From Candidatus Woesearchaeota archaeon (GTDB lineage Archaea; Nanobdellota; Nanobdellia; Woesearchaeales; 0-14-0-80-44-23), in the NCBI GenBank assembly GCA_038874135.1, contig JAVZCZ010000001.1, positions 751,219 to 815,218 of the forward strand: a DNA stretch of 64,000 nucleotides, in the 5' to 3' direction. How positions within the stretch are numbered: the first letter of the stretch is position 1; the number at the start of each line of letters is the position of its first letter. The position numbers were made by a program, and so were the translations under genes. The notes under the pieces were generated by a model. The model had not been told where the DNA came from. It ran no database searches and saw only the letters and a list, made by a program, of their open reading frames with translations. This document shows, piece after piece, positions 1 to 33,636 of the stretch.

Positions 1-3000
1 TGCTCATACTCTTCTAACTACTTGGAAGTGCAGTGCTCAGATGAGCAAGCCTATGGCAATGCCTCTACATATTTTTACATATTTGAACTTCCATCCGTGA
101 ATACTTACGAACCGAACGATTCTGCAATAATAAACTCTTCCTCATTCCAATTTGAATATGAAATTCTGCCAGAATCGTCAGCATACTTAGTTAAAAACTG
201 CGCCCTTATATTAGATGGAACTTCCTGTAACTCTACTGATTTACCTCACAATGGAACAAACAGCATAAGCTGCCCGTTCAGTGAAGGATCTCACACTTGG
301 AAGGTGCTCTGCACACTCATAGGCTCAGGCCAGGAAACTATTGAAAGTCAAGAAAGAGGATTCTTTGCAGATTATAGTCCTCCAAATATAAACCTAATTA
401 ATCCAAACCAGCCCGCTTACAATTCAGATGTTCCCATTGAATTTAACATTACAGACTCTGCCTCTTCATCATTCAATTGCACAATATCCGGCATTCCAGC
501 ACCATTCAATCTCAGCTCACTTGTTTCCTACTCTTCTAAGCTTAACCTTCCAGTAGGAAAATATAATCTAACGATTTCCTGCTCAGATGCTGCTGGAAAT
601 TCTGCATATACTTGGCAAGAATTTGAACGAATAAATCTTTCAGTTTCAACTGACAAAAAATATTATATTCCTATGGAAAATGTGTTTATAACGCTGAACG
701 CTCCTCCTTCCCAAACAAATATCTCAGTTTCAAAAGGCAATTTCACACTGTCCAAAACAACAACTCCACCATATCCAATAGTCTACATCTTCACATCCTC
801 AAACGAGCCTGGAGATTACCTGGTGCAGGCATTTACAACATATAACAACATAACATTCACTGCCAACACCTCATTCTCAGTCAATATAACTAGAAACCTT
901 ACACTTTCAATATCAGCTAACACCACAACAGCTGAGCCCGGAGTAAGAATCCTATTCTATTCTAATGTTTCAGGAAACCTCACTCCTGTTACATACTTGT
1001 GGGACTTTAATAATGATAACCTTCCCGAAAGCAGCCTTCCAAATACCGAATACTCTTTCTCACAGCCTGGAAGATACCTCGTAACTTTAAAAGTGAACGA
1101 CTCATATTCCTCCGCCTCAGCTTCAATAAATATAACAGTGCTCTCCAGAGCAAATTTGAGCATTACAGTTCTTAACAGGCTTGGAGAACCTCTCGCTGGA
1201 GCAAACATCACGCTAGGCAACACATCTGCCATAACCAACTCCTCTGGAGCAGCAGTCATGCAGAATCTGCTTCAAGGCACATACCCTATAAATGTAACAG
1301 CCACAAATTACAATTCGTATTTCAACACAGTGGACATTTCCTCTAACAAAAACATAACAATATATCTACAAGAGCTCACAGAAGAGCCGGAAATCCTAAT
1401 AACAGAACCAACAGATGGTGCTACAATAACATCCCTTCCAATTACAATAAGGTTCAAAGCAAATTTATCATATCCTACAAACTGCACACTATACAAAAAT
1501 GAACAACAATCCTGGTGGGAACAGCTTTCTCAGATGGCTGTTACAAACAACACTGAAAATACCTTGTCAGTAGCCAATCTCACGGACGGGCAAGTTCTTC
1601 TAAGAATCGTATGCACAGATGTATTCGGAAACAGTGGCACCCAACAGATTTCCCTTAACATCAGCACACTACCAAAAGAGCCGCAATATCCAGAACTAGA
1701 CCAGGCAGAAGAAGAGCTCTACACAAAACAGGAATACTACAACAGCATAGGACCAGCACAGCTTGAAGCAGCTCAACTATTAGGTATACCTGATATGCTC
1801 TCAGATGCTCAGAACCGATTAACACTCGCCAGGAGGGATCTCTCAGACCTCTCATATTCAAAAAAGAGCCCGGAGGAAAAAGAAGCAAGAAAGAGTGAAA
1901 TAATATCTGACGCCGTTTCACGAATCAATGCAATTCCAGATTCAATACAGGTGCTATCTTCTTATGAACAGATACACTATCCAACTCAGCAAGAGCTGGA
2001 AAAGGTGGCAGCTCCCTTCATCTCAGCTAATTCTCTGAAGATAGACCAGCGGACATTCCTAAGAGCAAACTCTCCACTTATTGAGCTAATAACAATAAAT
2101 ACAAAAGCGTTTTCAATAGTGCTAAATTATAACGGGGAGAGCCGAGAAGTGTCTGTAATAAAGCACTCTGTACAGCTCAGCCAACAGCTTAACGAATCAG
2201 CAATCTCAAACCTGATGTTAATACTCAATATTCCAAAACAGATAGCTGACTCAGCAGCAGGAATCACATTTATGGACAGGTATGGACAAAAAGTAGTCAA
2301 AGATGATCCAATCTTTTCACTTCCTGTTACAAGCGAAATAGTTTACCAAATAAACAAGAGCATTGATGCAAATTCTGCTTCTGAGATATCACTCCTCTTA
2401 GTAAGCAAGAGTGCTTCAGTTTCAATACCAGGCATATCGGGACTGGCAGTTTCACAGACAAGGTATTCCATCTGGCCTTTCAATCTCATTGGAGGAAAAA
2501 TTGGCTCCAGTTTAGCTATTCAAATAGTAATACTTGTAGTGCTTCTTACCATATACTTAGTATACACCCTTCAGCCGGAAATAATAAGCAGATCAGCAGA
2601 TGCACTAGGAAATCATATCAAAAATCTCAGACCTCGCTCGGAAAATAGGATGAAGCAAATAGTCCATGCTGAGAAGTCAATTCCCACAACACTACAGAAC
2701 AATTTAGCTAGCATGCCGCAGCAACAAACATACTCACCCATTCAACAACAAGTAGTTCCCATAGGGCCTGGAATGCAGCATTCTTACATTGCTTACAGAA
2801 TGCAACGGGCTCTTCAGTTGGCAGAGCAGAACAACTATGAGGAAGCTTCAGCCGCATATTATGAATTAAAATTCCTTTATAACACGCTCAGCTCTCACGA
2901 AAAATCCCTACTTTATCCGCAATTATTAAACCTGGGACACAAGCTTAACATTTCCTATATCAGACAGTTAGTTTCAGAAGCAAAGTTAAAGGTTAATTCA

Positions 3001-3222
3001 GACTACCAAGAAGCCCTTGAACTTTATGATAAGATCTCCAAGGCATACTCACTGCTCCCTACAGAGTTCAAGTATGCAGTGTTCTCTGAATGTCTTGAGC
3101 TTCTAAACATTCTTGAAAGGGCAAGAAAAAACCAGAACAACTCTGAAAATCAAGCAGTAACCTTCAAAAAGAAAAAAAAGAGGTGCAGGTCAAAATCACA
3201 CGCCAAGGCGAGAAGGGCATAA
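1..3222 (+). CDS. Large glycoprotein-like surface protein with its N-terminus off-window. It has PKD-like and carboxypeptidase-regulatory-like Ig-fold modules, a C-terminal TM anchor and a helical cytoplasmic tail.
   Basis: ORF track gives 22..3222. The same frame is stop-free back to nt 1, so the true start lies upstream. 'YLWDFNNDN...GRYLVTLKVND' is PKD-like. 'ITVLNRLGEPLAGANITLGNTSAITNSSG' is CarboxypepD_reg-like. Module ends such as 'YNLTISCSDAAGNSAYT' recur. A hydrophobic stretch LAIQIVILVVLLTIYLVYTL lies near the C-terminus. N-x-S/T sequons are very dense. Confidence 0.75.
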   Translation, partial: CSYSSNYLEVQCSDEQAYGNASTYFYIFELPSVNTYEPNDSAIINSSSFQFEYEILPESSAYLVKNCALILDGTSCNSTDLPHNGTNSISCPFSEGSHTWKVLCTLIGSGQETIESQERGFFADYSPPNINLINPNQPAYNSDVPIEFNITDSASSSFNCTISGIPAPFNLSSLVSYSSKLNLPVGKYNLTISCSDAAGNSAYTWQEFERINLSVSTDKKYYIPMENVFITLNAPPSQTNISVSKGNFTLSKTTTPPYPIVYIFTSSNEPGDYLVQAFTTYNNITFTANTSFSVNITRNLTLSISANTTTAEPGVRILFYSNVSGNLTPVTYLWDFNNDNLPESSLPNTEYSFSQPGRYLVTLKVNDSYSSASASINITVLSRANLSITVLNRLGEPLAGANITLGNTSAITNSSGAAVMQNLLQGTYPINVTATNYNSYFNTVDISSNKNITIYLQELTEEPEILITEPTDGATITSLPITIRFKANLSYPTNCTLYKNEQQSWWEQLSQMAVTNNTENTLSVANLTDGQVLLRIVCTDVFGNSGTQQISLNISTLPKEPQYPELDQAEEELYTKQEYYNSIGPAQLEAAQLLGIPDMLSDAQNRLTLARRDLSDLSYSKKSPEEKEARKSEIISDAVSRINAIPDSIQVLSSYEQIHYPTQQELEKVAAPFISANSLKIDQRTFLRANSPLIELITINTKAFSIVLNYNGESREVSVIKHSVQLSQQLNESAISNLMLILNIPKQIADSAAGITFMDRYGQKVVKDDPIFSLPVTSEIVYQINKSIDANSASEISLLLVSKSASVSIPGISGLAVSQTRYSIWPFNLIGGKIGSSLAIQIVILVVLLTIYLVYTLQPEIISRSADALGNHIKNLRPRSENRMKQIVHAEKSIPTTLQNNLASMPQQQTYSPIQQQVVPIGPGMQHSYIAYRMQRALQLAEQNNYEEASAAYYELKFLYNTLSSHEKSLLYPQLLNLGHKLNISYIRQLVSEAKLKVNSDYQEALELYDKISKAYSLLPTEFKYAVFSECLELLNILERARKNQNNSENQAVTFKKKKKRCRSKSHAKARRA

Positions 3223-5564
3223 TTTGTGCTCTGCTTTTAGGAATTGTAACTATAATCTTAGGTAGTTATGCCTGCGCTTTGGAATTTTCACCATCTTCAA
3301 TTAACGAAGTGCTTTCTATTAACAAGTTTGTTCAGAAAAACATAACTTTGAAGAATGAACTCTCCTATCCGGTAAGGATTGCTCTGGTGCCCTCTTCTAA
3401 CATTAGCGATTTATTAGACATCACTCCAAATTCTATTGAAATCGGGGCAAGAGAGTCAAAGAATGTTCTGGTTACAATATACGGAAATGTTGATCCTATA
3501 AAATTTATTAATCGCTCGTATTACATCTTTAATGGCTTCATAAAGCTTGAAGGAGCTAACGCTCAAATACCTACGGACTTGATGGTCACTAATGGAACAA
3601 TAAACCTGCCCAGCAGCATGGTGCTTTCAGCATCGGCAGGTAAGGATTATTTCACTAAATCAGAAAATCTCTCTTTTATAATTGTTGTAACGAATCTTAT
3701 GACAGGCTCAAAACCAAATGTTACTCTTTTCTATTATTTCCTAATTGATAAAAACTCAGAAATTCCCGTTGGGAACGATTCCTTCATAATTACTACTTCA
3801 AAATCAGTTGTAAAGGAATTCATACCAATGTCTTCAATACCTGATGGCACCTATACTTTCAGGGTTGTAATGTCTTATGCAGATAAGAAGAGTGTTGCTG
3901 ATGTGCCCTTCAGGATATCAACCCCATTTATATTCAGAACATTCTTAGGTATAGCTGTATGGCAGTATATACTCGGAGTGATTGCCTTAATAATAATTGG
4001 CTTGTTAGTATACTGGCGAAGGAAGCGTGTTTTGGCTTCTCGTCGTTATGGTGTGAGTGTGGATTTGCGTAGTTTTCCTTCTTCTGGTAGGCTTGTGCGT
4101 TTGGGTAAGTTGGCGGAGTATGGGCGTGATTTTTGGTTTGATTTGGATGGTTTGACTACGCATTGTATTGTGGCTGGTGCTACTGGTGGTGGTAAGACTG
4201 TTGCTGCTCAGGTTTTGGTGGAGGAGGCTTTGAAGGCTGGTGTGGCTGTGGTTGTTTTTGATCCTACGGCTCAGTGGAGTGGTTTTTTGAGGCCTTGTTC
4301 TGATAAGGGTATGTTGTCTTTGTATTCGGGTTTTGGGTTGCGTCGTTCTGATGCTCGGGGTTTTCCGGGTAATGTGAGGCAGGTGTTGGATGCTCGTGAG
4401 GTTTTTGATGTTAGGCGTTTTATGCGTCCTGGTGAGATTGAGATTTTGAGTTTGAATAGGTTGAGGCCTGAGGAGATTGATGTTTTTGTGGCTAATACTG
4501 TTAGGAGCGTGTTTGATGCGGGTTTGGATGAGTGTCGTGAGTTGAGGTTGTTGTTGGTTTATGATGAGGTGCATAGGTTGTTGCCGCGTTTTGGCGGTTC
4601 TGGTGAGGGTTTTGTGCAGATTGAGAGGGCTTGTCGTGAGTTTAGGAAGTGGGGTGTTGGTGTTGTTTTGATTAGTCAGGTTTTGTCTGATTTTGTTGGT
4701 GAGATTAAGGCTAATATTAATACTGAGGTTCAGATGAGGACTCGTGATGAGGGCGATTTGGAGCGTATTCGTGTTAAGTATGGTGATGCTTATCTTAGGG
4801 GTCTTGTGAGGGCTAGTGTGGGTACTGGTATGTTTGAGAATCCCGGTTATAATGGTGGTCGTCCTTTTTTTGTTAGTTTTAGGCCTTTGTTGCATAGTGT
4901 GGTTCGTTTGTCTGATGCCGAGTTGGGTGAGTATAATAGGTTGAATGGGGTGTTGGATGATTTGGAGTTTTGGATTGGCGAGTTGGAGCGTTTGGGTGTG
5001 GACGTGTTTGATTTGAGGTTGGAGTTGAAGTTGGCTTGGGATAAGTTGAGGGTTGGGGGGTTTGGGATGGTGGATGTTTATGTTGAGGGTTTGAGGCCTC
5101 GCGTGTTGGGCGAGTTTGAGCGTTTGGGGAGGCCTGTTCCTAAGCGTGAGGTTAAACGCCTTTCAGATGAGGAGCTTGCAAAGCAGAGGAAGCTGGCTGA
5201 GCAGAGCCGTGCAGAGTTTATAAAAAAGATGGGCATTAAAGAGCAGCAGTCCAAGCAGGAGGAAAAGAAGGAAGAACACATCGTGCAGCCTTACACTTTT
5301 GATAATGGTGCAATGGTTTCGGAGCTTAAGGAGTTGAAAGACGCTATAGAACCTATGAGTGCTGACATCCTCAGAAGCGCGTTGAGTGGAAACAATAAGC
5401 TTTCTGATTGGATAAAGAATGAGCTTAAGAATGAGCAGCTTGCCTCTGAAATTGAGAAGGCGAAGACGAAAAAGGAGATTCTTGATGCAATAACTGCTGA
5501 ACTTGATAAAGCAGAAAAGAGCAGTGAGAAATCTGGAACTGATAAAGGCCAAAAGTCTAAGTAG
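3183..5564 (+). CDS. Membrane-anchored HerA/FtsK-superfamily (DUF87-like) P-loop ATPase, paralog 1. Order: signal-anchor, ~250-aa extracellular domain, TM, cytoplasmic ATPase, Lys/Glu-rich tail with a conserved C-terminal module.
   Basis: Walker A AGATGGGKT is at nt 4173-4199 and Walker B LLLVYDEVH at 4548-4574. 'REFRKWGVGVVLISQ' is a HerA/DUF87-type motif. The TM GVIALIIIGLLVYW is followed by RRKR (positive-inside). The track start is GTG 3183, which overlaps the upstream ORF by 40 nt, so the exact start is uncertain. Confidence 0.8.
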   Translation: MQVKITRQGEKGIICALLLGIVTIILGSYACALEFSPSSINEVLSINKFVQKNITLKNELSYPVRIALVPSSNISDLLDITPNSIEIGARESKNVLVTIYGNVDPIKFINRSYYIFNGFIKLEGANAQIPTDLMVTNGTINLPSSMVLSASAGKDYFTKSENLSFIIVVTNLMTGSKPNVTLFYYFLIDKNSEIPVGNDSFIITTSKSVVKEFIPMSSIPDGTYTFRVVMSYADKKSVADVPFRISTPFIFRTFLGIAVWQYILGVIALIIIGLLVYWRRKRVLASRRYGVSVDLRSFPSSGRLVRLGKLAEYGRDFWFDLDGLTTHCIVAGATGGGKTVAAQVLVEEALKAGVAVVVFDPTAQWSGFLRPCSDKGMLSLYSGFGLRRSDARGFPGNVRQVLDAREVFDVRRFMRPGEIEILSLNRLRPEEIDVFVANTVRSVFDAGLDECRELRLLLVYDEVHRLLPRFGGSGEGFVQIERACREFRKWGVGVVLISQVLSDFVGEIKANINTEVQMRTRDEGDLERIRVKYGDAYLRGLVRASVGTGMFENPGYNGGRPFFVSFRPLLHSVVRLSDAELGEYNRLNGVLDDLEFWIGELERLGVDVFDLRLELKLAWDKLRVGGFGMVDVYVEGLRPRVLGEFERLGRPVPKREVKRLSDEELAKQRKLAEQSRAEFIKKMGIKEQQSKQEEKKEEHIVQPYTFDNGAMVSELKELKDAIEPMSADILRSALSGNNKLSDWIKNELKNEQLASEIEKAKTKKEILDAITAELDKAEKSSEKSGTDKGQKSK
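4021..5176 (+). repeat. ATPase cassette copy 1. This 1156-bp block is identical to 8201-9356, and its coding strand is G+T-rich.
   Basis: Base-by-base reading matches 8201-9356 at an offset of 4180. The sense translation and the long antisense ORF translations (4005..4895 vs 8191..9075) are identical in the ORF track. Line 4081-4140 contains 6 A and 6 C out of 60 nt. Flanking line 3901-3960 contains 17 A and 13 C. Confidence 0.95.
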
Positions 5565-5688: not shown

Positions 5689-5752
5689 CAATATACATAT
5701 TTAGTATGAGTTTGTATTCAAAGACCTTGAAAAGGCTTTTTTGGGACCCGAA

Positions 5753-5941
5753 ATGCGCAGTACGCCTGAGAAGCATGGCTCAAAGAGAATAACCATAACC
5801 ATAAGCAAGGACCTTTTAGACTTCTTAGATTTAGCTGTGGAGAACAGGCTGTTCGCAAGCAGAAGTCATGCACTTGAAGTCTTAGTAAGGCGCAGGATGG
5901 AGTTTGAGAATGAAGCAAAGAATTACAATTACATTGGATAG
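5753..5941 (+). CDS. Ribbon-helix-helix (CopG/Arc-MetJ-like) DNA-binding protein 1.
   Basis: 'KRITITISKDLLDFLDLAVENRLFASRSHALEVLV' has the beta-strand plus two-helix RHH pattern. The ORF track begins at TTG 5741, and the first ATG is 5753. Confidence 0.7.
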   Translation: MRSTPEKHGSKRITITISKDLLDFLDLAVENRLFASRSHALEVLVRRRMEFENEAKNYNYIG

Positions 5942-6101
5942 TGAATGCCTGGCATGGGTTGATGAAAAGGTAAAGAATAGAAGCTTTGCTAATCGGAGCC
6001 ACGGCTTTGAATTTTTAATAGCGCGATTCAAGGAGCGCCAAGAACTTCAGAATCTTCTCAACTCGCGAAATTCAAAGGAGGAAGACTTAAAACATGAATA
6101 A
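5910..6101 (+). CDS. Ribbon-helix-helix (CopG-like) DNA-binding protein 2, a tandem paralog.
   Basis: 'QRITITLDSECLAWVDEKVKNRSFANRSHGFEFLI' is paralogous to the upstream RHH. The track start is TTG 5904 and the first ATG is 5910. It overlaps RHH1 by ~32 nt and overlaps the start of the 1180-aa gene by 8 nt. Confidence 0.7.
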   Translation: MKQRITITLDSECLAWVDEKVKNRSFANRSHGFEFLIARFKERQELQNLLNSRNSKEEDLKHE

Positions 6102-9100
6102 AAATCCTACCTTCAGGATACTGGAACGGGACAGGCAGCTGGAAAGGAGAAGACAGCAGCTGTACATCCTATTAGGCATCTTAGGAGTTTTACTAGCAGT
6201 TGGTGTTATACTTCTGATAAGAATGTTCATAGGATACGCAGTTCTGGAAAGCAGGGCTGGCACAATAACACAACTTAATATACAGCTCAGATACTCAACA
6301 CACATATGGGCTGGATTTTACGGATTGGCATTCCGCGTTCCCGGATACACTGAGCAGCAGTCTGCAGTTGCAGTCGGCGGCACAGTCTTCTTGCAGCACT
6401 TAGTATTTGACTGCTTAAAAACTACAGACGGCAACATTCCTGAGGTATATGCCAGTACTTCAAGAAACATTGACTGGAATTCACTCCAGCCAGCAACTCC
6501 AGACTTGATTGACAGCTACCTACAAGTAGATCCTTCAGATATAACCTCTGCTTCAAACACATTTACAGAAACAATGTCAATACTCTTAGGAGACAGAGAA
6601 ATCACAAATATTGCTGCAACGCACACCAAAAAGTTCGGAGTTCCGGACAGCACGGACTTTGATATAGGCTTCTTAAAAGATTCGTTGGGAAATCTCGTAT
6701 TTGTAACCCATGTAACTCCAACTTATACCAAAGGATTTAACAACCAAACTATAAACTACCAAATGCTCCTTCCAGTACAAGCAGGAACAGCTCCAGTATA
6801 CTACTTCTTCTCAGACCCATATGACGAGTGCCAAGCAGGGCTTGAAGCTCTCAAAAATGCTACCATATTCGGAAGAGCCATAGACAATGCAACAGGCCTT
6901 CCACTTGAAAATGTTACAGTTAATCTTCATACTGCTACAGTTCTTACCAACTCTACAGGAGACTATTACATAGCAATATTTAACGGCACCTACACCCTAG
7001 TAGCTTTCAAGCCGGGATATTACACCTTTGTTGCAACAAACATCACTCTCCCAGCTGACAATCTGTCTACACCTCAATCTGAAAATATTGTCGAATTTAA
7101 TATATCCCTCATTCCCAACCCTGGAAACCCAACTGGACTCGGAAACCTAACTGGCACTGTAACTGATAAAGACTTCGGAATACCCCTCTATAATGTAACA
7201 GTGTATGTAAACGGCAGAATCGCTAAGACAAACATTACAGGCCAATACCTACTTGAACTGCCAGCAGGAAATCATTCTCTTATAGCAATGAAGGAAAACT
7301 ACAGAACATACTACACTCCAAATGTAACTATACTGCCTGGAAACACCACTGAATTTAATTTCAGTATGGAATATGCAGAGCCAGAAATAAAAGAAACTCC
7401 TGGATATCCGCTAAATACCTTCGTTTCCAACCTACTCAAACAGGCAGTGCAGAGGCCTCAAATAATACTCACTCATAAGATTGATACAAAAGAGATATTT
7501 GAAACATTAAAAGTTGGCTCATATGTCCAGCGCTCATTCAATATAACGAGTTACAGGCCTGCCGAGTCCAAAGTTGAGTTTGAAGTCATAGGAAGTGCTG
7601 CACAGCTGGTAAAGGTTGACAAGAGCAGCTCAATAATACCTCCAAGGGGTGCAGAAAACTTCACCCTTACAATTCTAGCCAATGTGCCTCCAGGCATATA
7701 TACCGGAACATTCCTAATCAAAGGAGACCTTGAAGACAGAATCCCGATAAAGATAGTTGTTTATGAGAAGGATAGACTTCCAATAGAGGCTCTTCTCCTA
7801 GAAGTAGTGCCAATAAAAAAGATAATCAGCCCAGGAGAACTATTTGAATATAAGGTCAGCATGACAAACCTGCTGAGGGACACCCCATACAACATCACCC
7901 TTTCATACAATATCACCTCGCGCTCTTCAAATCTTACTATTCCCGTTGAAGAAGAGACGAGACTCTTGGAAACTCAGCTTTCCTACCTTAAGTATTACAA
8001 GCTTCCCAAAGACCTGCCAGAAGGAGAATACTTCCTTGAAACTAGAGCGGAATTCTTAGAACTATCAACAAACACAAAATCGCTATTCATAGTTAAGAAG
8101 CCAATTTACATGTATGCATTATTCGGAATACTTCCCCTCTGGCAGCTTTTCATAATAATAGTTTTCACCTCCCTCATGACCTTCGCAGGATTAATGTATC
8201 GGAAGCGTGTTTTGGCTTCTCGTCGTTATGGTGTGAGTGTGGATTTGCGTAGTTTTCCTTCTTCTGGTAGGCTTGTGCGTTTGGGTAAGTTGGCGGAGTA
8301 TGGGCGTGATTTTTGGTTTGATTTGGATGGTTTGACTACGCATTGTATTGTGGCTGGTGCTACTGGTGGTGGTAAGACTGTTGCTGCTCAGGTTTTGGTG
8401 GAGGAGGCTTTGAAGGCTGGTGTGGCTGTGGTTGTTTTTGATCCTACGGCTCAGTGGAGTGGTTTTTTGAGGCCTTGTTCTGATAAGGGTATGTTGTCTT
8501 TGTATTCGGGTTTTGGGTTGCGTCGTTCTGATGCTCGGGGTTTTCCGGGTAATGTGAGGCAGGTGTTGGATGCTCGTGAGGTTTTTGATGTTAGGCGTTT
8601 TATGCGTCCTGGTGAGATTGAGATTTTGAGTTTGAATAGGTTGAGGCCTGAGGAGATTGATGTTTTTGTGGCTAATACTGTTAGGAGCGTGTTTGATGCG
8701 GGTTTGGATGAGTGTCGTGAGTTGAGGTTGTTGTTGGTTTATGATGAGGTGCATAGGTTGTTGCCGCGTTTTGGCGGTTCTGGTGAGGGTTTTGTGCAGA
8801 TTGAGAGGGCTTGTCGTGAGTTTAGGAAGTGGGGTGTTGGTGTTGTTTTGATTAGTCAGGTTTTGTCTGATTTTGTTGGTGAGATTAAGGCTAATATTAA
8901 TACTGAGGTTCAGATGAGGACTCGTGATGAGGGCGATTTGGAGCGTATTCGTGTTAAGTATGGTGATGCTTATCTTAGGGGTCTTGTGAGGGCTAGTGTG
9001 GGTACTGGTATGTTTGAGAATCCCGGTTATAATGGTGGTCGTCCTTTTTTTGTTAGTTTTAGGCCTTTGTTGCATAGTGTGGTTCGTTTGTCTGATGCCG

Positions 9101-26655: not shown

Positions 26656-27150
26656 ATGCCAATTTTAAAGAAAGAGCAACCAACTGCATTTCAGGAGCCA
26701 CCTAAAGAAGTGCCGCCCTTGGCGCGGGAGATAATTGAAAGGAGCAAGATAGCTGGGCATACCGAACTTCCTCAGGAACTTCCACGAATTGCCGAATTGG
26801 TTGAAAGCCCAAAACAGGAATATCCAATACCACAAGAGTCAGCTCACGCTTCCGACGACATAAAAGAAGTGAAAGAACGCCTTGAACGAATAGAATCCTT
26901 GCTCAGAACTGCTGTTCCGGGAAAATATCTCATACTGAGAGATGGGAAAGTACTTAAGAACATTGCCGATTTGAGAAGCGCTTTAGCCACGATGAGTTCG
27001 GAAACATTCAATTTGCATGTCAACTTTGAGAGGAATGACTTTGCAAATTGGGTTAGGAATGTCTTCTTGGAAAAAGAGCTTGCTGATAAGTTGGATGGAG
27101 CCACGAGCAGGGCTCAGATGATTAGAATTTTAAACGAATATTTTGACTGA
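26656..27150 (+). CDS. Small cytoplasmic protein carrying a conserved ~70-aa C-terminal module shared with two membrane proteins of the locus.
   Basis: 'LILRDGKVLKNIADLRSAL..SETFNLHVNFERNDFANWVRNVF' aligns with the C-termini of the 844-aa ORF (35335..37869) and the 793-aa ATPase ORF. It has no signal peptide. Confidence 0.6.
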   Translation: MPILKKEQPTAFQEPPKEVPPLAREIIERSKIAGHTELPQELPRIAELVESPKQEYPIPQESAHASDDIKEVKERLERIESLLRTAVPGKYLILRDGKVLKNIADLRSALATMSSETFNLHVNFERNDFANWVRNVFLEKELADKLDGATSRAQMIRILNEYFD

Positions 27151-27453: not shown

Positions 27454-28224
27454 ATGAAAAGGCGAATCAAAAACTTAGGAGCAATAGCCTCCTTCCTGGC
27501 TTTGTTGCTAGCAGCAGCAGTTCTGGCAGAACCTCAACAGGAGCCAATAGGTCCTGACAGCATAAACCAGTTAGGCTCCAGCAGGCATACCCCCGCAGCT
27601 ATTCCATCACGCCCAGCATATGCAGGAAACGTAACTGAACTTTCAGTCTATACTCAGACCACAACACTCGGCTGGCAAGGTTACTATGGAAATGTAACGG
27701 GTACAATAGTTCTTGATGATGCTAATAATCACACAATGTATGACTGGGCAATTGCACATCCAGAAGGAGAAATCTATGCAGTAATCCAACCAGTAGCTGA
27801 TTGGGACCAGGTTTCATGTGCAACTCCAGCTCAGATAAGTACGATAGAAAACAACACTTACAAGTTTAACACTTATCCGAACGGAACACTAAAGCCCTCA
27901 TTAGATGCAGACAGCATTACAAACACATTTGCAGCAAACTTTGATGGAGACTTTTATGTCGGCTCAACACGAATAAATGCTACATCCGGGTGTAAGGCAG
28001 CATACCTCTATGTCAATGATGCTCCAGACCCGTCAAAGAAGTTTACTGAGACATTGCTATACGACCAGGTGAATGCTAATCTCATCTTCACAGCAATCCT
28101 GGTAGAGAATACGGCAACAGGATTTGACGGGCTGCCTCACGACTTTCAGATGATAGTAGCAGAGAACGGTCACAATGGAGATGAAACCACAACAACATAC
28201 TACTTTTATGTAGAACTGCAATAA
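27454..28224 (+). CDS. Secreted protein, family A paralog 1, unknown function.
   Basis: The signal peptide is NLGAIASFLALLLAAAVLA, and GAGGGTG SD lies upstream. It is paralogous to 28495..29187 (shared 'YxGNVTG..VL.D..N...YDW', 'FDFQMIV', C-terminal 'YY.YVEL'). Confidence 0.7.
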   Translation: MKRRIKNLGAIASFLALLLAAAVLAEPQQEPIGPDSINQLGSSRHTPAAIPSRPAYAGNVTELSVYTQTTTLGWQGYYGNVTGTIVLDDANNHTMYDWAIAHPEGEIYAVIQPVADWDQVSCATPAQISTIENNTYKFNTYPNGTLKPSLDADSITNTFAANFDGDFYVGSTRINATSGCKAAYLYVNDAPDPSKKFTETLLYDQVNANLIFTAILVENTATGFDGLPHDFQMIVAENGHNGDETTTTYYFYVELQ

Positions 28225-28294
28225 GGGAAAGCCATACTTGCTTTCTCTTATTAATTTTCACCTCCAGGCGAGGCGAGCAAGCGAGTGATGAAAA

Positions 28295-28498
28295 ATGGAA
28301 CGCATCCCAGCACTAAATCCCAGATACACAAAAGTGGTCTGGCAGGAAACCCCTCAATCTGTAAGGGTTATACAGGGTATCTATTCTGAAGATGGAGACT
28401 TCATAAGAGTTAAAGGCGACTATAAAGAGGTTCTAATCAGAAAGGATAAGGTGATCTCCATAGAGCACAAGCAGGCTGCGCGGGGTGATATAAAATGA
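28295..28498 (+). CDS. Small (67 aa) cytoplasmic protein, unknown function.
   Basis: The ORF lies between two secreted paralogs, and its stop overlaps the next start (ATGA). No recognisable motif. Confidence 0.45.
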   Translation: MERIPALNPRYTKVVWQETPQSVRVIQGIYSEDGDFIRVKGDYKEVLIRKDKVISIEHKQAARGDIK

Positions 28499-29187
28499 AA
28501 AAAGTATTCATACTAATCTTGCTGGCAGCATTTCTCGCATTCTCAGTCCGCGCAGTTCCGACTGGCCCTGTTATAATGAGCAACAGTACAGACTACGGTC
28601 CATCTAATGCTGGCACACTGGTCAGCACTGCTGGAGGAACGATTACAACATATCTATTAAATGCTACTCAGCAGAACCTTAGATGGAAGGCATATGTCGG
28701 AAATGTGACTGGAAGGTATGTGCTTCAGGACTCTGCCAACTACTCCATCTACGACTGGAGCTTCACAATAAACTCGGGAGAGGTATATGCCACGAGAGCG
28801 TCCTCAGTCAACTGGGCAAATGTGAACTGCGCAAGCCCCGCACAGATAAGTTCAGAAGAATCAGCACTGAATCAGAACTCAGCCAATCCCGATACCATCT
28901 CAAAGACATTCAACACAAAATTTCACAACGCCTTTTCAGTAGGAACTGTCCCAATAAGTGCCAACTCTTGCAACTCCACAGCAACTAATGTTAACGGAGC
29001 CCCTCAAAGCACCTACTTTCAAGAAGTGCTCTTACATGATCAAGCGAGCGCTTTCATATACGCAACTCTTTTGAGCATTGGACAGACTGGTTATAATAAT
29101 CAGCATTTTGATTTTCAAATGATAGTGCCTGAAGACGAGATTACTCCGGGAAACACTCAGTACTACCTGTATGTAGAGCTCATATGA
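28495..29187 (+). CDS. Secreted protein, family A paralog 2.
   Basis: The signal peptide is VFILILLAAFLAFSVRA. It is homologous to 27454..28224 over its full length. Confidence 0.7.
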   Translation: MKKVFILILLAAFLAFSVRAVPTGPVIMSNSTDYGPSNAGTLVSTAGGTITTYLLNATQQNLRWKAYVGNVTGRYVLQDSANYSIYDWSFTINSGEVYATRASSVNWANVNCASPAQISSEESALNQNSANPDTISKTFNTKFHNAFSVGTVPISANSCNSTATNVNGAPQSTYFQEVLLHDQASAFIYATLLSIGQTGYNNQHFDFQMIVPEDEITPGNTQYYLYVELI

Positions 29188-29194
29188 GCCAGAG

Positions 29195-30112
29195 GTGATT
29201 AAATTGAAAATCAAGCAAGCCATTCAAGCATTGGCAGTGGGACTTCCTCTGGCATTCCTGCTCTACTTTTGGACTGCCTCACTAATATTATTTGCAGGCA
29301 AGGCTGAAGCAGTTTCATCCTGGAATGTTAATGCTACAGTCAATGTAACAAACGCTCCGCCAACAGTTGTGAGCGTGCTTTTAGACGACAATGTAACATC
29401 GCCTGCTGACACAATTGACCTAGTAGCAGGGGGCACTCAGCTAGTTTACTGCAACGCTACCGTGAATGATACTAACGGGTACTTAGACATAACTAGCGCT
29501 AGGGCTGTGCTCTACCACTCTTCCTCAACCCCCAATGCAGCTGATAACAACGAGACGCACTACACTAACAACTCATGCACACTACTCGCCGGCTCAGGCA
29601 TATCCAGACCTGTTTCCTGCGCATTCAATATGCTTTACTACGCAACTAACGGCACTTGGACTTGTAATGTAACTGCTTTTGACTCAGATAATGCCAACGG
29701 CACCGGCATAGATACTGCAAATGTGAGCATACTTGTAGCACTTAACATCTCTACACAGGTTCTAAACTATGGAAACCTTGCTCCACTGCAGGAATCCAGC
29801 CCGGTTACAGAAACAATAACAAACCACGGCAATGTGCAGATTGACCTCGTGCTGAATGGAACAGACATGCCCTGCACTTCAGTAGGAATAATAACTCCAA
29901 ACGCACAGCATTATAATGTTACAGGAACAGGAACGACTTATGCCACAATGACTCCCCTGCAGTACAATCCCGTGACCGAAACCTCATTTAACCTTGCGAA
30001 GAGGACTGACGCTGCTGAGAGCACAAGGGCAACCTACTGGAAAATCATACCTCCAGTAGGAACCAAGGGGATATGCACAGGAAATGTAACAATAGCAGCA
30101 GTAGTGGGATAA
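29195..30112 (+). CDS. Secreted/membrane-anchored protein, family B, paralogous to the C-terminal half of the 752-aa ORF.
   Basis: The track start is GTG 29195. An in-frame TTG at 29204, preceded by GAGGTGAT, is the more likely start. 'APPTVVSVLLDDNVTSPADTIDL..G......C.A.V.D.NG' and 'NGTWTCNVTAFD' match 30160..32418 ('RPPLITSILLDDDILAPSFQIDL', 'NGTWTCNVTIND'). Confidence 0.7.
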   Translation: MIKLKIKQAIQALAVGLPLAFLLYFWTASLILFAGKAEAVSSWNVNATVNVTNAPPTVVSVLLDDNVTSPADTIDLVAGGTQLVYCNATVNDTNGYLDITSARAVLYHSSSTPNAADNNETHYTNNSCTLLAGSGISRPVSCAFNMLYYATNGTWTCNVTAFDSDNANGTGIDTANVSILVALNISTQVLNYGNLAPLQESSPVTETITNHGNVQIDLVLNGTDMPCTSVGIITPNAQHYNVTGTGTTYATMTPLQYNPVTETSFNLAKRTDAAESTRATYWKIIPPVGTKGICTGNVTIAAVVG

Positions 30113-30159
30113 ACTTTTTTTATAAAACTTTTTAAATATATTCTCATTTTAAATGGCTA

Positions 30160-32418
30160 ATGTTGAAATATAATCAGAGGTTTATTTTATATGCATCATT
30201 TCTAATTTTAATAGCAGCACTTTCCAGTATGGCAGCTGCTGCTCCAATAACATTTTCTACACACTTCTTAGCTCCTATAGCAGTCGCTTCTCTGTCTAGA
30301 GACTCATTCGTAATCGCGTATTGTGACAATACCTCCGCCAAGGTCGCCTTTCAAATTTATAGAACTAATGGCACCCAGCTCCTTGCAGAGCGGGATGTGG
30401 ACACAACACTTGGAACAAACCCTTGCGGTTACACTTCAGTTGCAGTTTCAGCTTTTAATTCAACACACTTTGTTATCGGCTGGATAGACAGCGGAAGCTC
30501 TTATGCAAGCTTTCAAGTGTTTGATATAAATGGGAATCCATATTCCAGCAGGGTGGATGTGGATACTACTGCTGGTACTTCCCGTTCTGTGAGTGTGTCT
30601 GCTTTTAATAGTTCTGCTTTTGTTTTTGGTTGGTATGATCAGGCTTCTGCTTATGCTTCTTTTAGGACTTTTAGTTCTTCTGGTGTGGCTATTTCTTCTG
30701 TTGTTAATGTGGATACTACTGCTGGTACTTGTAATGCTGTTTCTGTTTCTGCGGTTAATTCTTCTGCTTTTGTTTTTGGCTGGTATGATCAGGCTTCTTC
30801 TGATATGACTTTTCGTACTTATACTTCTTCTGGCGTTGCGATTTCTGCCGTGACTGATGTGAATACTAAGGTGGGTACTGGTTCTTTTTCTGTTTCTGTT
30901 GCTGCTTATAATTCTAGTGCTTTTGTTATTGTTTGGTATGATCAGAGGCTGGGTTATGTTAGTTTTCGTCAGTATTCTGTTGCTGGTGTTCAGATTGGGA
31001 GTCAGGTTAATCCGGATACTGCTGTTGGGACTACTGCTTCTGGTGTTTTTGTTTCTTCTGTTGGTGTGAATTCTAGTGTTTTTGCTGTGGGTTGGAATGA
31101 TTTGACTACTGATGTTGTTAGTTCTGTGAGGACTTATAGTGGTGCTGGTGCTGCTGTTTCTTCTGAGGTGGTTGTGCAGGCTAATGCTTTGAAGTATAAT
31201 GCTCTGGCTGGCTACTACCCTGCCACGGGCATACGCATGTGTGACAACGCATTCGTAATAGCAATTTCTAATACAAGCACGCAAGCATTCTTCACAGGAT
31301 ATTATGCCAATGGAACCAACTGGAATGGAATATGCACGCCTCCGAATATGAACTCATCTAAAATAACCTCTTCAGAAGATAACTTTTACTACAATGCAAC
31401 CCTGATTGGATGGTGCAATGCAACCCATCCTGACAGCCAAAACATCTCATACTACTACAACTGGTACCTAAACGGGCTATTAAACAAAAGTGGACAAACA
31501 CAGTATAGCACTCCAGGAGTCGCAGTGAATGTGGATAACATAACCTCATCATACCTCTCAATAGGCCAAAACTGGACTTTGGAATGCATTGCCTATGACG
31601 GATTATCCAACTCAACACCTCTCAACTCGACAGCAGTGACAATAGTGGATATAAATAGGCCTCCCCTGATAACCTCAATTCTTTTGGACGATGACATCCT
31701 TGCTCCTTCTTTTCAGATAGATTTATCTGCGGGCTCAACTAAAAGGGTTAATTGTAATGGCACAATTCAGGATCCAGATGGAATCTCAGACATTGTGAGC
31801 ATATCAGCAGTACTTTACGCTTCTGGCAACGGCACTCTTCCTACATTTCCCGAAGACAATAACACATTATACCGAAACTACAGCTGCTCACTATCCCAAA
31901 TAAACCTGACCTCTGGCTCTTTTAACTGCTCATTCGCATTGTGGTATTATGCCCAAAACGGCACCTGGACATGCAATGTTACTATTAATGACACAAAGTC
32001 CCACTACGCTTCAGCAATAATAAATTCAACTGTTAACGAGCTGGTGGCATTTGAAGTTTTCCCACTAACAGTTGACTATGGCAATATGGCTCCTGGAAGC
32101 ACCAGCGCGTCTTCAACAAATCTGCTAATAACCAATATGGGCAATACAAAAATTGACTTAATACTTAATGGCACCAACATGAGCTGCACCTTAGGATTTG
32201 TAGGAGCTTCAAACCAGCATTATAATTTGACAGGGTTTGACCAGGAATATTCTAATATGAGAGCACTTACCGAGCTTCCGTTTACCGCTTCAGATTTTGA
32301 CCTTCAAAAGCGTGTAACCTCGGAAGCTAACAGGACTGCCTATTGGCGCGTTCAAATCCCTACAGGCGTTAAGGGAAGATGTCTAGGTATAATTCAGCTG
32401 ACAGCTCAGAAGGGTTAA
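30160..32418 (+). CDS. Secreted mosaic protein. The N-terminal propeller-like repeats are shared with the 2612-aa giant, and the C-terminal half is a family B domain.
   Basis: The signal is FILYASFLILIAALSSMAAA. Residues flanking the identical cassette are homologous to the giant but diverged. The C-terminal half is homologous to 29195..30112. Confidence 0.8.
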   Translation: MLKYNQRFILYASFLILIAALSSMAAAAPITFSTHFLAPIAVASLSRDSFVIAYCDNTSAKVAFQIYRTNGTQLLAERDVDTTLGTNPCGYTSVAVSAFNSTHFVIGWIDSGSSYASFQVFDINGNPYSSRVDVDTTAGTSRSVSVSAFNSSAFVFGWYDQASAYASFRTFSSSGVAISSVVNVDTTAGTCNAVSVSAVNSSAFVFGWYDQASSDMTFRTYTSSGVAISAVTDVNTKVGTGSFSVSVAAYNSSAFVIVWYDQRLGYVSFRQYSVAGVQIGSQVNPDTAVGTTASGVFVSSVGVNSSVFAVGWNDLTTDVVSSVRTYSGAGAAVSSEVVVQANALKYNALAGYYPATGIRMCDNAFVIAISNTSTQAFFTGYYANGTNWNGICTPPNMNSSKITSSEDNFYYNATLIGWCNATHPDSQNISYYYNWYLNGLLNKSGQTQYSTPGVAVNVDNITSSYLSIGQNWTLECIAYDGLSNSTPLNSTAVTIVDINRPPLITSILLDDDILAPSFQIDLSAGSTKRVNCNGTIQDPDGISDIVSISAVLYASGNGTLPTFPEDNNTLYRNYSCSLSQINLTSGSFNCSFALWYYAQNGTWTCNVTINDTKSHYASAIINSTVNELVAFEVFPLTVDYGNMAPGSTSASSTNLLITNMGNTKIDLILNGTNMSCTLGFVGASNQHYNLTGFDQEYSNMRALTELPFTASDFDLQKRVTSEANRTAYWRVQIPTGVKGRCLGIIQLTAQKG
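30550..31205 (+). repeat. Propeller-blade cassette copy 2, identical to 19969-20624.
   Basis: Evidence is the same as for copy 1, and the codon phase is the same. After 31205 the two loci stay ~85% identical for about 27 nt, then diverge. Confidence 0.95.
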
Positions 32419-32445
32419 GATTTAAATAATCGTGGTGATGAAGAT

Positions 32446-33636
32446 ATGAGTATGAAGATATTAACAAGAGTTTTTGTAATCTCCCTGTTCCTTATTTCAG
32501 CTTCCATTCCCTGCCTTGCAAGTTTAGGAGTAAGCCCAGGAGCTCTGATTTTTCCAAACATGCTGAGAGGCGGTTTTGCACAGCGTCAGATACTCATAAG
32601 CACCCTCTCAGAGCCAATAAATGTTCAGCTAAATGCAGGAGGCGAAATTGACTCTTGGATTGAATTCTCCCGTCAAAACCTCACAGTACTTCCAAACATT
32701 TCAACCGCAGTATCAATAGTTGTAAGGCCACCTGCAGACATTCCTAACGGCAACTATTCCGGGTTTGTCACGGTGTTTAGAACTCCTATGGATAACTCTC
32801 AGAACATAACTGGGATAGGAAATGTTGTAGTTATGAGCGTGAGAGTTCCGATAACTGTTGAGGTTACTGACAGAGAATCTAAGAAGTGTAGGGCGTACTC
32901 ATTTTCAATAGATAGTGTGGAGCAGGGCAGCCAGGCAAAGCTCAGAATGGTTGTGATAAATGATGGCAATGTTAAAATGTCTTCTCCGGTAAGAGTGGAC
33001 ATCTGGGATCAGCAGAGGACATCTATAGTTAAGTTTCAACAGTTTTCAACACCTAATGTTCTGCCAACTTTGGAACAGGCTATAGATTTTTCTCTCTCTG
33101 TTGAGCAGCTTCCAACAGGTCAATACTGGGCAGAGATATCTGTGCCGGAGTGCGACGCTTATTCCATAGTGACTTTTGACATCCTTGAAAAGGGGGCGCT
33201 CTTATCCAAAGGTTCGCTGCTGCAGATAATTAATGAGCCCTGGATCTCAGTAGGACAGACTGCAAAGATAGAAGCCATTTTCAAAAATGAAGGAGCCAGA
33301 AGCGTTCTGGCAAGGTTTAAGGGCACAGTGTCTTATCAAGGGCAGCTCGTGTCAGTTCTAGAATCTGACGAAGTTGAAGTTCCTGCTGGGGCAACAGAAT
33401 CCTTAATTACCTATTTTAAACCTGCACTTCCCGGCTCTTACACTATTGAAGGAAGAGTATATTATGGAAAAAAGGTTACCTTTCCAGCATCTTCAATAAT
33501 AAATGTGAAGGAGAGCCAGAGAATTCACTTAGATCTTATTACTCTGATTTATATAATGATACTGATTGCCAGCCTTGTTCTGCTGTTCCTCATATTTAGA
33601 AGGCATAGGAAGAGGATGCGAAAGAGACTTTTCTGA
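32446..33636 (+). CDS. Secreted Ig/CARDB-like protein with a C-terminal TM anchor and basic tail.
   Basis: The signal is VFVISLFLISASIPCLA. The C-terminal TM is LITLIYIMILIASLVLLFLIF followed by RRHRKRMRKR. 'NVQLNAGGEIDSWIEF..QNLTVLPN....VSIVVRPPADIPNGNYSGFVTV' resembles segments in the extracellular parts of both ATPase proteins. Confidence 0.7.
   Translation: MSMKILTRVFVISLFLISASIPCLASLGVSPGALIFPNMLRGGFAQRQILISTLSEPINVQLNAGGEIDSWIEFSRQNLTVLPNISTAVSIVVRPPADIPNGNYSGFVTVFRTPMDNSQNITGIGNVVVMSVRVPITVEVTDRESKKCRAYSFSIDSVEQGSQAKLRMVVINDGNVKMSSPVRVDIWDQQRTSIVKFQQFSTPNVLPTLEQAIDFSLSVEQLPTGQYWAEISVPECDAYSIVTFDILEKGALLSKGSLLQIINEPWISVGQTAKIEAIFKNEGARSVLARFKGTVSYQGQLVSVLESDEVEVPAGATESLITYFKPALPGSYTIEGRVYYGKKVTFPASSIINVKESQRIHLDLITLIYIMILIASLVLLFLIFRRHRKRMRKRLF

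Follow-up and report, generated by a model that had tools for sequence, protein, structure and literature searches.

The closest described relatives of the proteins considered in this study are ATP-driven motors of the FtsK-HerA superfamily. HerA of the HerA-NurA system, e.g. that of Sulfolobus (4D2I) or Deinococcus (7F6D), contains a HAS-barrel and has NurA as its partner. FtsK/SpoIIIE, TrwB/VirD4 and TcpA are attached to the membrane by polytopic or two-transmembrane (TM) anchors with small loops, while EssC/EccC (with which VirB4 is grouped here) possess three ATPase domains, an FHA domain and WXG-type substrates. The Ced system of archaea is located in the membrane and includes an ATPase that resembles HerA and VirB4. 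We analyzed a 64,000-nucleotide (nt) stretch of the genome of a Candidatus Woesearchaeota archaeon (assembly GCA_038874135.1, contig JAVZCZ010000001.1, positions 751,219 to 815,218; hereafter the window), which encodes two paralogous membrane ATPases, ATPase-1 (A1; 793 aa, 3183-5564) and ATPase-2 (A2; 1180 aa, 6094-9636), together with large surface proteins. All features are located on the + strand unless indicated otherwise.

In contrast to HerA, the window ATPases lack both the HAS-barrel and NurA, and are predicted to be membrane-anchored with an extracellular head. Instead of small loops between multiple TM segments they have a putative glycosylated, Ig-like ectodomain of 230-630 aa. The FtsK gamma/KOPS domain, the all-alpha domain of coupling proteins, and relaxase or type IV genes are not present in the window system; the C-terminal region of A1 comprises a helical bundle and a DUF5752-like domain. 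Unlike EssC/EccC, these proteins contain one ATPase domain and no FHA domain, WXG-type proteins are missing, and their neighbors carry Sec signals. Ced is similar in its general character and its CedD protein is weakly matched, but the lineage and gene order differ, and no CedA-like polytopic partner was identified here, although no search aimed at CedA was made.

The most surprising content of this region is a cassette shared by the two ATPase genes, which evolves in concert and has been recoded in such a way that nearly all of its codons end with G or T. No precedent for this was found in the literature; searches for DUF5752, for third positions restricted to G and T, and for members of this ATPase family in DPANN were likewise without result. 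Concerted evolution of paralogues (e.g. bacterial tufA/tufB) and GC-biased gene conversion are both familiar phenomena. The cassette shares with tufA/tufB-type conversion its identity within a genome and divergence between genomes, and, as in GC-biased conversion, the composition of its tracts appears to be set by a repair bias rather than by protein function. Whereas GC-biased conversion favors G and C, the bias observed here is towards the keto bases G and T, is strand-specific, affects 97-100% of third positions, and has remodeled the protein (K/(K+R) of 0.2 versus 0.65). One may regard the cassette as an example of biased gene conversion in a new form, which is strand-specific and "keto-biased". 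The overall explanation that we favor, with about even confidence, combines a conserved membrane HerA-like translocase cluster, a gene-converted cassette and strand-polar biased conversion.

Identical cassettes and their concerted evolution

The sequence at positions 4021-5176, within the A1 gene, is 100% identical over 1156 nt to that at 8201-9356, within the A2 gene. The first-pass annotation of this DNA referred to two ATPase motors, which is misleading, since A1 and A2 hold one identical motor cassette. A second exact repeat (656 nt, 100% identity) occupies positions 19969-20624 and 30550-31205, and is common to the gene of a giant secreted protein (giant-2) and the open reading frame (ORF) at 30160-32418. 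When 79 homologous loci, the window and one further locus (L002), amounting to 1.3 Mb in total, were inspected for long intra-locus repeats, the only ones detected were islands of this G/T-rich type.

The second cassette also contains, in both of its copies (19976-20364 and 30557-30945), tandem units of approximately 150 nt (approximately 50 aa, 'SVSVSAFNSSAFVFGWYDQAS...'), which are 77% identical to one another. These units look like blades of a propeller-like domain; diverged units are therefore enclosed in a repeat that is exact between the two genes.

The motor cassette is also duplicated in related genomes. In a genome from Kamchatka (L004; 492-kb contig) the A1 and A2 genes are arranged in tandem and both motors are identical over 1240 nt, and in two loci from Joint Genome Institute (JGI) assemblies (L084 and L087) the paired motors are 100% identical up to the contig ends. 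The heads, on the other hand, are orthologous across genomes (A1 of the window to A1 of L004, and A2 to A2), and the cassettes of the related genomes differ from that of the window by 6-26% at the amino acid level (74-94% identity). Motors that are identical within genomes and diverged between them, and that lie between orthologous flanks, show that the cassette undergoes concerted evolution, i.e. that it is homogenized by recurrent gene conversion. The presence of identical motors on two different heads suggests that the proteins form mixed hexamers or use a shared set of cytoplasmic partners.

A possible by-product of this recombination was found in a metagenome-assembled genome (MAG) from a Chinese hot spring (L003; JAWBOW010000026.1, 6820-9381). 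Its single ATPase combines an A1-type head, the motor and an A2-type C-terminal tail, and has the structure expected if two cassettes had recombined and the intervening DNA had been deleted, with loss of the A1 tail, the RHH (ribbon-helix-helix) genes and the A2 head.

Exact repeats of 1.2 kb are hard to assemble, several assemblies break at this locus leaving partial proteins at contig ends, and the edges of identity are sharp, as might be expected of an assembly collapse or chimera, or of overwriting by a viral or plasmid donor with G/T third positions throughout its genome. We consider such an artefact or foreign import extremely unlikely. The layout with two identical motors was recovered in independent projects and lineages (the window, the Kamchatka genome and both JGI loci), on which grounds an assembly artefact was rejected, and the same A2 protein is encoded in two assemblies, on contigs of 495,644 bp (GCA_038731275.1) and 909,956 bp. 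The cassette also co-diverges with its lineages, as reflected in the identity range given above; furthermore, the recoded motif was found on no viral contig, although this is a weak negative result.

In other NCBI assemblies of the same species (P0123, P0125 and P0126), partial A1 and A2 genes terminate at contig ends. This fits breaks introduced by assemblers at the exact repeat of 1.16 kb, and the copy number in these MAGs is therefore unreliable.

Diversity-generating retroelements (DGRs), which are common in DPANN, also involve pairs of repeats in surface-protein genes and adenine-related change. DGR copies, however, differ at A positions, while the copies described here are 100% identical, form tracts of 0.66-1.2 kb and are depleted of C as well. 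No reverse transcriptase domain was present in the scanned window proteins, and a DGR was rejected as the source of the repeats.

Recoding of third codon positions

Throughout the 64 kb, a G+T content of at least 0.64 in 200-nt intervals (mean 0.49, standard deviation 0.08) is reached only in the four repeat copies. The third codon positions of the motor cassette (island a) comprise 1% A, 3% C, 41% G and 56% T, and those of the second cassette (island b) 3% A, 8% C, 15% G and 74% T; the flanks of the same genes are ordinary. Inside the exact repeats, codons ending with G or T account for 372 of 384 (P ~1e-108) and 214 of 218 (P ~1e-67), respectively, compared with a fraction of 0.456 in the rest of the genes. 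In each of the six copies examined, the run of G/T third positions (K3 island) opens with the first codon of the exact repeat, although the repeat edges themselves vary by lineage, and the run in the second cassette both begins and stops at the repeat boundaries.

The pattern is complete in L003 and L004, the closest relatives among the species representatives, whose motors are 74% identical to that of the window. None of their approximately 379 third positions is A or C (T 68-69%, G 31-32%), and the codon chosen is always that which minimizes A+C: leucine is encoded by TTG in 43 of 43 cases, arginine only by CGT or AGG, and serine only by TCT or AGT. At four-fold degenerate sites, T is found in 142 of 143 cases in L003 and L004. 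A metagenome scan added six contigs, whose motors are 74-94% identical to that of the window, have 97-100% G/T third positions and, where pairs are visible, are identical; the query was the recoded conserved ATPase motif, which retrieves this ATPase only, so the spread of recoding was sampled within the ATPase. In a second lineage of the clade (L083), the homologue of giant-2 contains a G/T island in the same domain.

Paralogues that have diverged do not share this composition. In five genomes with tandem motors that are only 49-68% identical to each other, the fraction of G/T at third positions is 0.42-0.63, and in diverged paralogue pairs of the window (including the small secreted proteins p256 and p230) it is 0.37-0.57. 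Two otherwise ordinary homologues, L079 (10001-11161) and L032 (10001-11161), reach 0.76 and 0.72, respectively, compared with an average of 0.52 in the family; these values may represent either an early stage of recoding or just T-rich codon usage.

The third positions that differ between lineages are almost wholly G<->T exchanges (51/64, 83/102 and 89/102; 80-87%), which shows that the constraint has been maintained over a large amount of change. The bias extends to the protein sequence. The values for the recoded motors and for other homologues, respectively, are 0.17-0.21 and 0.65 +/- 0.04 for K/(K+R), 0.12-0.18 and 0.52 for I/(I+V), and 0.32-0.36 and 0.52 +/- 0.016 for the A+C content of codon positions 1 and 2. 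Single-step amino acid changes relative to the family consensus include 24-27 of the class A>G, 10 of A>T, 5-6 of C>G and 2-6 of C>T, with 0-1 in each of the reverse classes (G>A, T>C, T>A and G>C); in normal homologues G>A alone constitutes 24%. The order of base preference is thus T>G>>C>A, and amino acid change is one-way, from A/C to G/T, transversions included. The converted tracts alone have lost nearly all A and C from their coding strand wherever the protein permits. We conclude that the recoding is genuine and old, and that it is linked to gene conversion.

Two unrelated gene pairs have thus been cleared of A and C on one strand, at 97-100% of silent sites, and this state has been kept across protein divergence of up to 26%. 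A bias in repair or recombination may therefore be able to override codon usage and to reshape a highly conserved enzyme. Recoding of this kind could also mislead gene callers (through open antisense frames), detectors of horizontal gene transfer (through "foreign" composition) and assemblers.

The antisense frames in question lie opposite the motor cassette, at 4005-4895 (-) and 8191-9075 (-) in the window, at 7648-8883 in L003 and at 9950-11215 in L004. They remain open for 294-296 codons in the window and 411-470 codons in L003, L004 and L083, because G/T third positions exclude stop codons from this frame. Their products would be composed almost only of I, M, T, N, K, S, R, L, P, H and Q, and the first codon base differs between lineages at 13-22% of codons.

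A frame open across the whole island might point to selection at the RNA or protein level, acting on a real antisense gene, on an unstructured or more stable mRNA, or on GT-rich, recombination-prone pairing; Tracy and Kowalczykowski are said to have found that RecA and Rad51 prefer GT-rich DNA. We regard selection of this type as very unlikely. The antisense product, with its restricted alphabet and variable first codon bases, is open but unconstrained, and a functional antisense gene was rejected as the cause of recoding, since the frame is open by construction and its sequence is not conserved. Unstructured mRNA was rejected as well: the predicted folding energy of the recoded segments (-0.21 to -0.26 kcal/mol/nt) equals that of 30 normal homologues (-0.245 +/- 0.045 kcal/mol/nt), and the agreement per nucleotide holds at 37 and 70 C. 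Finally, it is hard to justify site-by-site selection that would clear every synonymous A and C.

Possible mechanism of the recoding

The data suggest that the recoding results from strand-polar gene conversion with a keto bias introduced by mismatch repair. The endonuclease EndoMS cleaves G/T, G/G and T/T mismatches best and T/C moderately, while A/G, A/A, A/C and C/C are poor substrates (PMC4838380), and NucS acts on recombination intermediates (PMC8228993). If, in the heteroduplex, the same strand of one copy were always annealed to the complementary strand supplied by its partner, a G or T allele on the fixed strand would give rise to G/T, G/G and T/T mismatches, which would be cut by an EndoMS/NucS-type endonuclease, while an A or C allele would produce A/C, A/A and C/C mismatches, which would escape it. 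T against G would yield T/C (moderate) or G/A (poor), and C against A would behave likewise. After the cut, the donor could be copied anew or the intermediate could be rejected; in either case one polarity would favor T>G>>C>A. This hierarchy, expected from the cleavage preference of EndoMS (PMC4838380), is matched in island a, island b, L003 and L004. Conversion biased by EndoMS would explain jointly the confinement to tracts, the strand specificity, the transversions and the order of base preference.

By extension, we tentatively propose that any coding segment of this clade that recombines with a paralogous copy may be progressively rewritten by keto-biased conversion through an EndoMS/NucS-type nuclease. 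Near-total synonymous recoding, in which all codons end with G or T and TTG is the sole leucine codon, together with a directed drift of the protein towards Val, Gly, Phe, Leu and Arg, would be the consequence, and is proposed with the same reserve. Several points weigh against this proposal. The presence of nucS/EndoMS in these genomes is a premise of the model, and the fixed polarity of the heteroduplex is assumed. The observation that every repeat and only repeats are recoded rests on three repeat families in approximately 100 kb of sequence from the clade. Moreover, both repeats of the window are on the same strand, so that the coding strand and the chromosome strand are indistinguishable. 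The recoded islands nevertheless provide a testable link to the specificity of EndoMS/NucS. If the proposal is true, they would constitute the first natural recoding of such strength driven by a repair bias, and would reveal how archaeal mismatch repair selects its substrates in vivo and which polarity the heteroduplex has.

A purely mutational origin was also considered, in which the coding strand of the repeats would often be single-stranded (in R-loops or D-loops) at high temperature, with deamination of C and A to U and hypoxanthine. A and C are indeed the bases that were lost, the bias is strand-specific and restricted to recombining tracts, A>G is the largest class of amino acid change, and this MAG and its closest relatives come from hot-spring surveys, judging by the titles of the records. 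Deamination of the displaced strand accounts for the G+T skew of the heavy strand of animal mitochondrial DNA, in which one strand is likewise poor in A and C and third positions are affected most. However, the mitochondrial skew is genome-wide, dominated by transitions and not linked to repeats, whereas the bias described here is confined to conversion tracts with the precision of single codons, and extends to transversions. The enrichment of those transversions by which A or C is lost (A>T and C>G) is similar to that of transitions, and the near-exclusive use of T at the four-fold sites of L003 and L004 is not the mixture of G and T that would mirror ancestral purines and pyrimidines. In addition, the complete lack of A and C at 379 third positions demands a ratio of forward to back mutation above 100, and the flanks of the same transcripts are normal. 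The excess of transversions and the predominance of T over G at four-fold sites indicate that simple deamination is insufficient, and we consider this explanation improbable.

Membership of the ATPases in the FtsK-HerA superfamily

Both ATPases exceed the gathering cut-offs of two Pfam models: DUF87 (37.8 and 37.1 bits for A1 and A2, respectively; cut-off 23.2) and HerA_C (37.4 and 27.2 bits; cut-off 22). The matches to both models span the Walker A region only. A phmmer search of the Protein Data Bank (PDB) retrieved HerA chains (E values of 1.7e-7 and weaker). The AlphaFold model of the 386-aa cytoplasmic module (mean local confidence score, pLDDT, 81; predicted template-modeling score, pTM, 0.83) has HerA 4D2I as its best Foldseek match, and the nearest folds of the motor are HerA, DptH, VirB4 and TrwB. 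The Walker A (GxxGxGK[ST]) and Walker B (hhhhDE) motifs, as well as an R/K motif (RE.RK.G), are invariant across 17-29 homologues. The assignment to the HerA/FtsK superfamily made in the first-pass annotation is therefore upheld by the Pfam scores, the PDB matches, the predicted fold and the invariant Walker motifs.

Within this superfamily, the sequences and models place A1 and A2 in the HerA clade, yet they are not canonical HerA proteins. The full-length HerA models of NCBIfam give scores far below their cut-offs (HerA_Thermprot, 34.6 bits versus 800; helicase_HerA, 25.3 versus 970). In the model of A1 no HAS-barrel precedes the motor; only approximately 45 residues with three short strands are located between the TM helix and Walker A. 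Neither NurA nor Mre11/Rad50 was found among the scanned window genes or the conserved neighbor families of the 79 loci.

Other branches of the superfamily are no better matched. The scores for FtsK_SpoIIIE (PF01580; 20.5 and 19.0 bits, Walker A only) and TrwB_AAD_bind (PF10412; 18.7 and 17.7 bits) are under the respective cut-offs of 24 and 20.5. The CedD model of NCBIfam gives 32 and 30 bits (E 5e-8) against a cut-off of 600, again in the Walker A region only, and the curated TraD model scores far under its cut-off, as do those of HerA, CedD and FtsK. No conjugation genes were found in the neighborhood of the window ATPases or of the 79 loci, and no components of type VII or type IV secretion systems were seen in domain scans of the window proteins.

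The family has hallmarks of its own. The motifs VFDPTAQW and EVHRLLP[KR][FY], an N-terminal hydrophobic segment, an ectodomain rich in N-X-S/T sequons and a TM segment are all present in both A1 and A2. A total of 271 database proteins share 47-64% identity with the motor; they originate from Woese-, Pace-, Nano-, Aenigm-, Micr- and Altiarchaeota, and are annotated merely as "DUF87/HerA-like". Since the family is widespread in DPANN and unnamed, it is a new variant within the FtsK-HerA superfamily.

Predicted membrane topology

Two hydrophobic segments are present in each ATPase, at aa 13-31 and 257-275 of A1 and aa 24-42 and 673-691 of A2. The region between them contains 7 (A1) and 21 (A2) sequons, and the approximately 470-500 residues that follow the second segment contain none. 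The same asymmetry was found in each of 69 homologues with normal codon usage, whose sequon density is higher in the ectodomain in 69 of 69 cases (2.25 versus 0.27 per 100 aa in the cytoplasmic part). The full-length model of A1 (pLDDT 85.3) comprises a helix (aa 2-27), two beta-sandwiches (33-136 and 146-246), a TM helix (259-286), the ATPase (300-566), a helical region (578-697) and a small domain (704-789). The proposal of the first-pass annotation that the head is located outside and the motor inside the cell agrees with all of these data, and this predicted layout is well supported.

The A2 protein has a longer head, with two CarboxypepD_reg domains. Its distal domain (aa 49-239; 6238-6810) is homologous (24-28% identity) to two small secreted paralogues, p256 (27454-28224) and p230 (28495-29187), which are free-standing secreted versions of the outermost domain of the A2 motor protein. 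This homology ties the region at 27.4-29.2 kb to the ATPase system in this lineage.

Conserved gene cluster in DPANN archaea

ATPases of this family are encoded at no fewer than 575 loci in species-representative genomes (one genome per species) of Woesearchaeota, Nanoarchaeota and Pacearchaeota. Gene order and protein size classes were analyzed in the 79 loci, with neighbors counted on the same strand as the ATPase. Two size classes may be distinguished, of approximately 780 aa (TM segments at ~10 and ~255; A1-like) and 1300 aa (TM segments at ~15 and ~605; A2-like). The lineage of hot-spring Woesearchaeota described here possesses a representative of each, the short-head A1 and the long-head A2. 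The fusion of an ATPase with an extracellular head had been noted as an unusual architecture; within this family it is the norm, the head-TM-motor layout being found in approximately 75 species-representative loci.

The gene context is composed of five parts, all of which are present in the window and which are individually kept in 40 to 63 of the 79 loci. An RHH protein of ~90 aa is encoded upstream in 40 loci, and a surface protein of 1000-1400 aa immediately upstream, often with a 4-nt overlap, in 54-56. The DUF5752-like domain is fused to the tail of the ATPase in 34 loci and encoded by the next gene in 23. A coiled-coil protein of ~360 aa is encoded downstream in 46-48. The first-pass annotation had named a lack of synteny in relatives as a finding that would speak against it; gene order proved to be conserved for the core operon in the 79 loci. 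The region thus belongs to an envelope gene cluster that is conserved throughout DPANN and consists of genes for an RHH regulator, a large type-I surface protein with a cytoplasmic tail, a membrane-anchored HerA-clade ATPase, a DUF5752/OrfY-like domain and a coiled-coil protein. Given its motor identity across phyla and the number of loci, this operon ranks among the most conserved uncharacterized clusters of DPANN.

The only solved relative of the DUF5752-like domain is OrfY (4CSO; function unassigned), which was matched in the PDB by the family profile with an E value of 3.6e-5. In the window the domain, with its motif H-V-N-x(5)-N-D-F-x(2)-W, occurs at three sites: in a stand-alone protein encoded at 26656-27150, in the A1 tail (5300-5561) and in the cytoplasmic tail of an otherwise unrelated surface protein (35335-35580, -). 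It may represent a shared docking module.

The genes of the two giant proteins were also considered by the first-pass annotation to be operonic with the ATPases. Their tight coupling within the window bears this out, but they do not belong to the conserved core. It is only within this hot-spring clade, of which L083 is the second lineage, that homologues of the giants are encoded after the operon, and matches elsewhere reflect the similarity of Ig domains to those of the upstream surface protein. The giants are peripheral to the conserved operon, to which they are clade-specific additions.

Putative function of the ATPase system

The invariance of the catalytic residues, the identity of 47-64% across DPANN phyla and the conserved operon argue for an active and important motor. 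Such a motor would most likely form a hexameric ring under the membrane, with six TM helices tethering a ring of glycosylated heads. It would drive the ATP-dependent movement of a polymer at the membrane, most likely of a nucleic acid, for the purpose of DNA uptake, exchange or segregation. We favor a nucleic acid as the substrate because the nearest folds are those of double-stranded DNA translocases, and because the partners are RHH proteins, a 274-aa protein with 65 Lys and Arg residues, and an SMC-like coiled-coil protein; in addition, archaea are not known to possess FtsK. Our confidence in a membrane nucleic-acid translocase is nevertheless somewhat less than even.

This assignment of function is challenged by several observations. 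The analysis revealed neither a substrate nor a candidate nuclease, relaxase or channel protein of the system, six single TM helices offer no obvious pore, and the co-encoded large proteins all possess ordinary signal peptides. The data do not distinguish between the transport of DNA and that of protein.

The main rival to a nucleic-acid translocase is a motor by which the large surface proteins of the cluster would be exported, assembled or anchored, in the manner of EssC/EccC or VirB4. In most loci the ATPase gene is preceded by, and translationally coupled to, that of a large surface protein which has a TM helix and a cytoplasmic tail, the DUF5752-like tails of the ATPase and of another surface protein suggest shared docking, and the A2 head domain recurs in the free secreted p256 and p230. 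However, the surface proteins and giants, with their ordinary N-terminal signal peptides or anchors, would use Sec, the closest folds (HerA and DptH) are those of DNA translocases, and the type VII and type IV secretion components sought in the window proteins were not seen. This role therefore appears rather unlikely.

The first-pass annotation viewed the block as a possible host-attachment or transfer machine of an episymbiont. The tight coupling of the genes from the first RHH gene to giant-2, the presence of giants after the operon in L083 and the origin of the DNA from a Woesearchaeota MAG fit a single machine of 33 kb, including the giants, for attachment to a host or for transfer between cells. 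On the other hand, the giants are not linked to the ATPase outside the clade, the core operon occurs in hundreds of genomes regardless of giants, and the link with a host is speculative. We consider a machine of this extent improbable.

Returning to the nucleic-acid translocase, DPANN archaea are attached to hosts and are unable to make many building blocks themselves. As a candidate core machine of these organisms, a membrane translocase whose head faces outwards could serve in the uptake of DNA or nutrients, or could supply a missing FtsK-like function. In any case, the operon is a defined target for biochemistry and cryo-electron tomography.

Gene organization and other features of the window

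All of the ORFs named in the first-pass annotation were found at the coordinates it gave, on the + strand. The large surface protein encoded at the beginning of the window (surf, 1-3222) has ectodomains of the PKD, CarboxypepD_reg and Ig-like types, a TM helix and a cytoplasmic tail of 219 aa. Its gene starts approximately 296 nt upstream of the window and encodes 1172 aa in the source record; in the 1066-aa ORF of the window (22-3222) the TM helix corresponds to aa 829-847. A second pair of RHH genes is located upstream of surf in the source record. The A1 gene, which overlaps surf by 40 nt, encodes, in order, a signal anchor, two beta-sandwiches, a TM segment, the HerA-clade ATPase with copy 1 of the motor cassette, a helical region and the DUF5752-like C-terminus.

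Two small RHH-like genes follow (5741-5941 and 5904-6101), with a mutual overlap of 38 nt. Their earlier identification agrees with matches to the NikR N-terminal domain (E 1.9e-6) and to a MazE-type protein (E 1.7e-5). The second of them overlaps the A2 gene by 8 nt. A2 consists of a signal anchor, the long head, a TM segment and the motor with copy 2 of the cassette. It is followed by the genes of a Lys/Arg-rich protein without a TM segment (K274, 9633-10457), whose homologues are encoded downstream of the ATPase in about 10 loci (E 1e-4), and of the coiled-coil protein (CC385; 385 aa, 10458-11615). The latter is the conserved partner of the ATPase, and its profile search yielded generic coiled-coil matches only; the protein also has a weak SMC-like match.

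Giant-1 (2346 aa; 11612-18652) is a secreted Ig-repeat protein with 131 sequons, and giant-2 (2612 aa; 18649-26487) is a secreted protein that combines a propeller-like repeat region, including copy 1 of the second cassette, with Ig repeats. Each begins with a signal peptide and carries 5-5.6 sequons per 100 aa, and domains of the Big_7, Big_13 and CARDB types are present in the giants.

From the second RHH gene through giant-2 the genes are packed without gaps. As previously noted, 4-nt overlaps of start and stop codons (ATGA) link A2 with K274 (at 9633), CC385 with giant-1 (11612) and giant-1 with giant-2 (18649), and K274 and CC385 abut with a gap of 0 nt (10457/10458). The coupling claimed at 28495, however, involves only an unannotated ORF of 67 codons (end at 28498), since the annotated upstream gene ends at 28224.

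Downstream of the giants, the ORF at 26656-27150 encodes a 164-aa cytoplasmic DUF5752/OrfY-like protein with a weak match to Pfam DUF5752. The genes of p256 and p230 are followed by those of three surface proteins (29195-33636): p305, p752 (the 30160-32418 ORF, with copy 2 of the second cassette) and p396, which has a C-terminal TM segment. An 844-aa surface protein is encoded on the opposite strand (35335-37869, -); its predicted cytoplasmic C-terminus is DUF5752-like (Pfam E 3e-4 at aa 775-829).

Further downstream, a stand-alone gene of a small HNH endonuclease (42280-42585, -) lies directly downstream of a topoisomerase gene, and a two-domain PLD-like (PLDc_2) protein is encoded at 48240-49223. 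Judging from their domains, both are putative nucleases in a genome with unusually active recombination of repeats; we assign them no role. A 107-nt tRNA at 52139-52245 (Rfam, 60.3 bits), which is absent from the ARAGORN output, adjoins tRNA-Leu(taa) at 52007-52094, and is probably an intron-containing archaeal tRNA.

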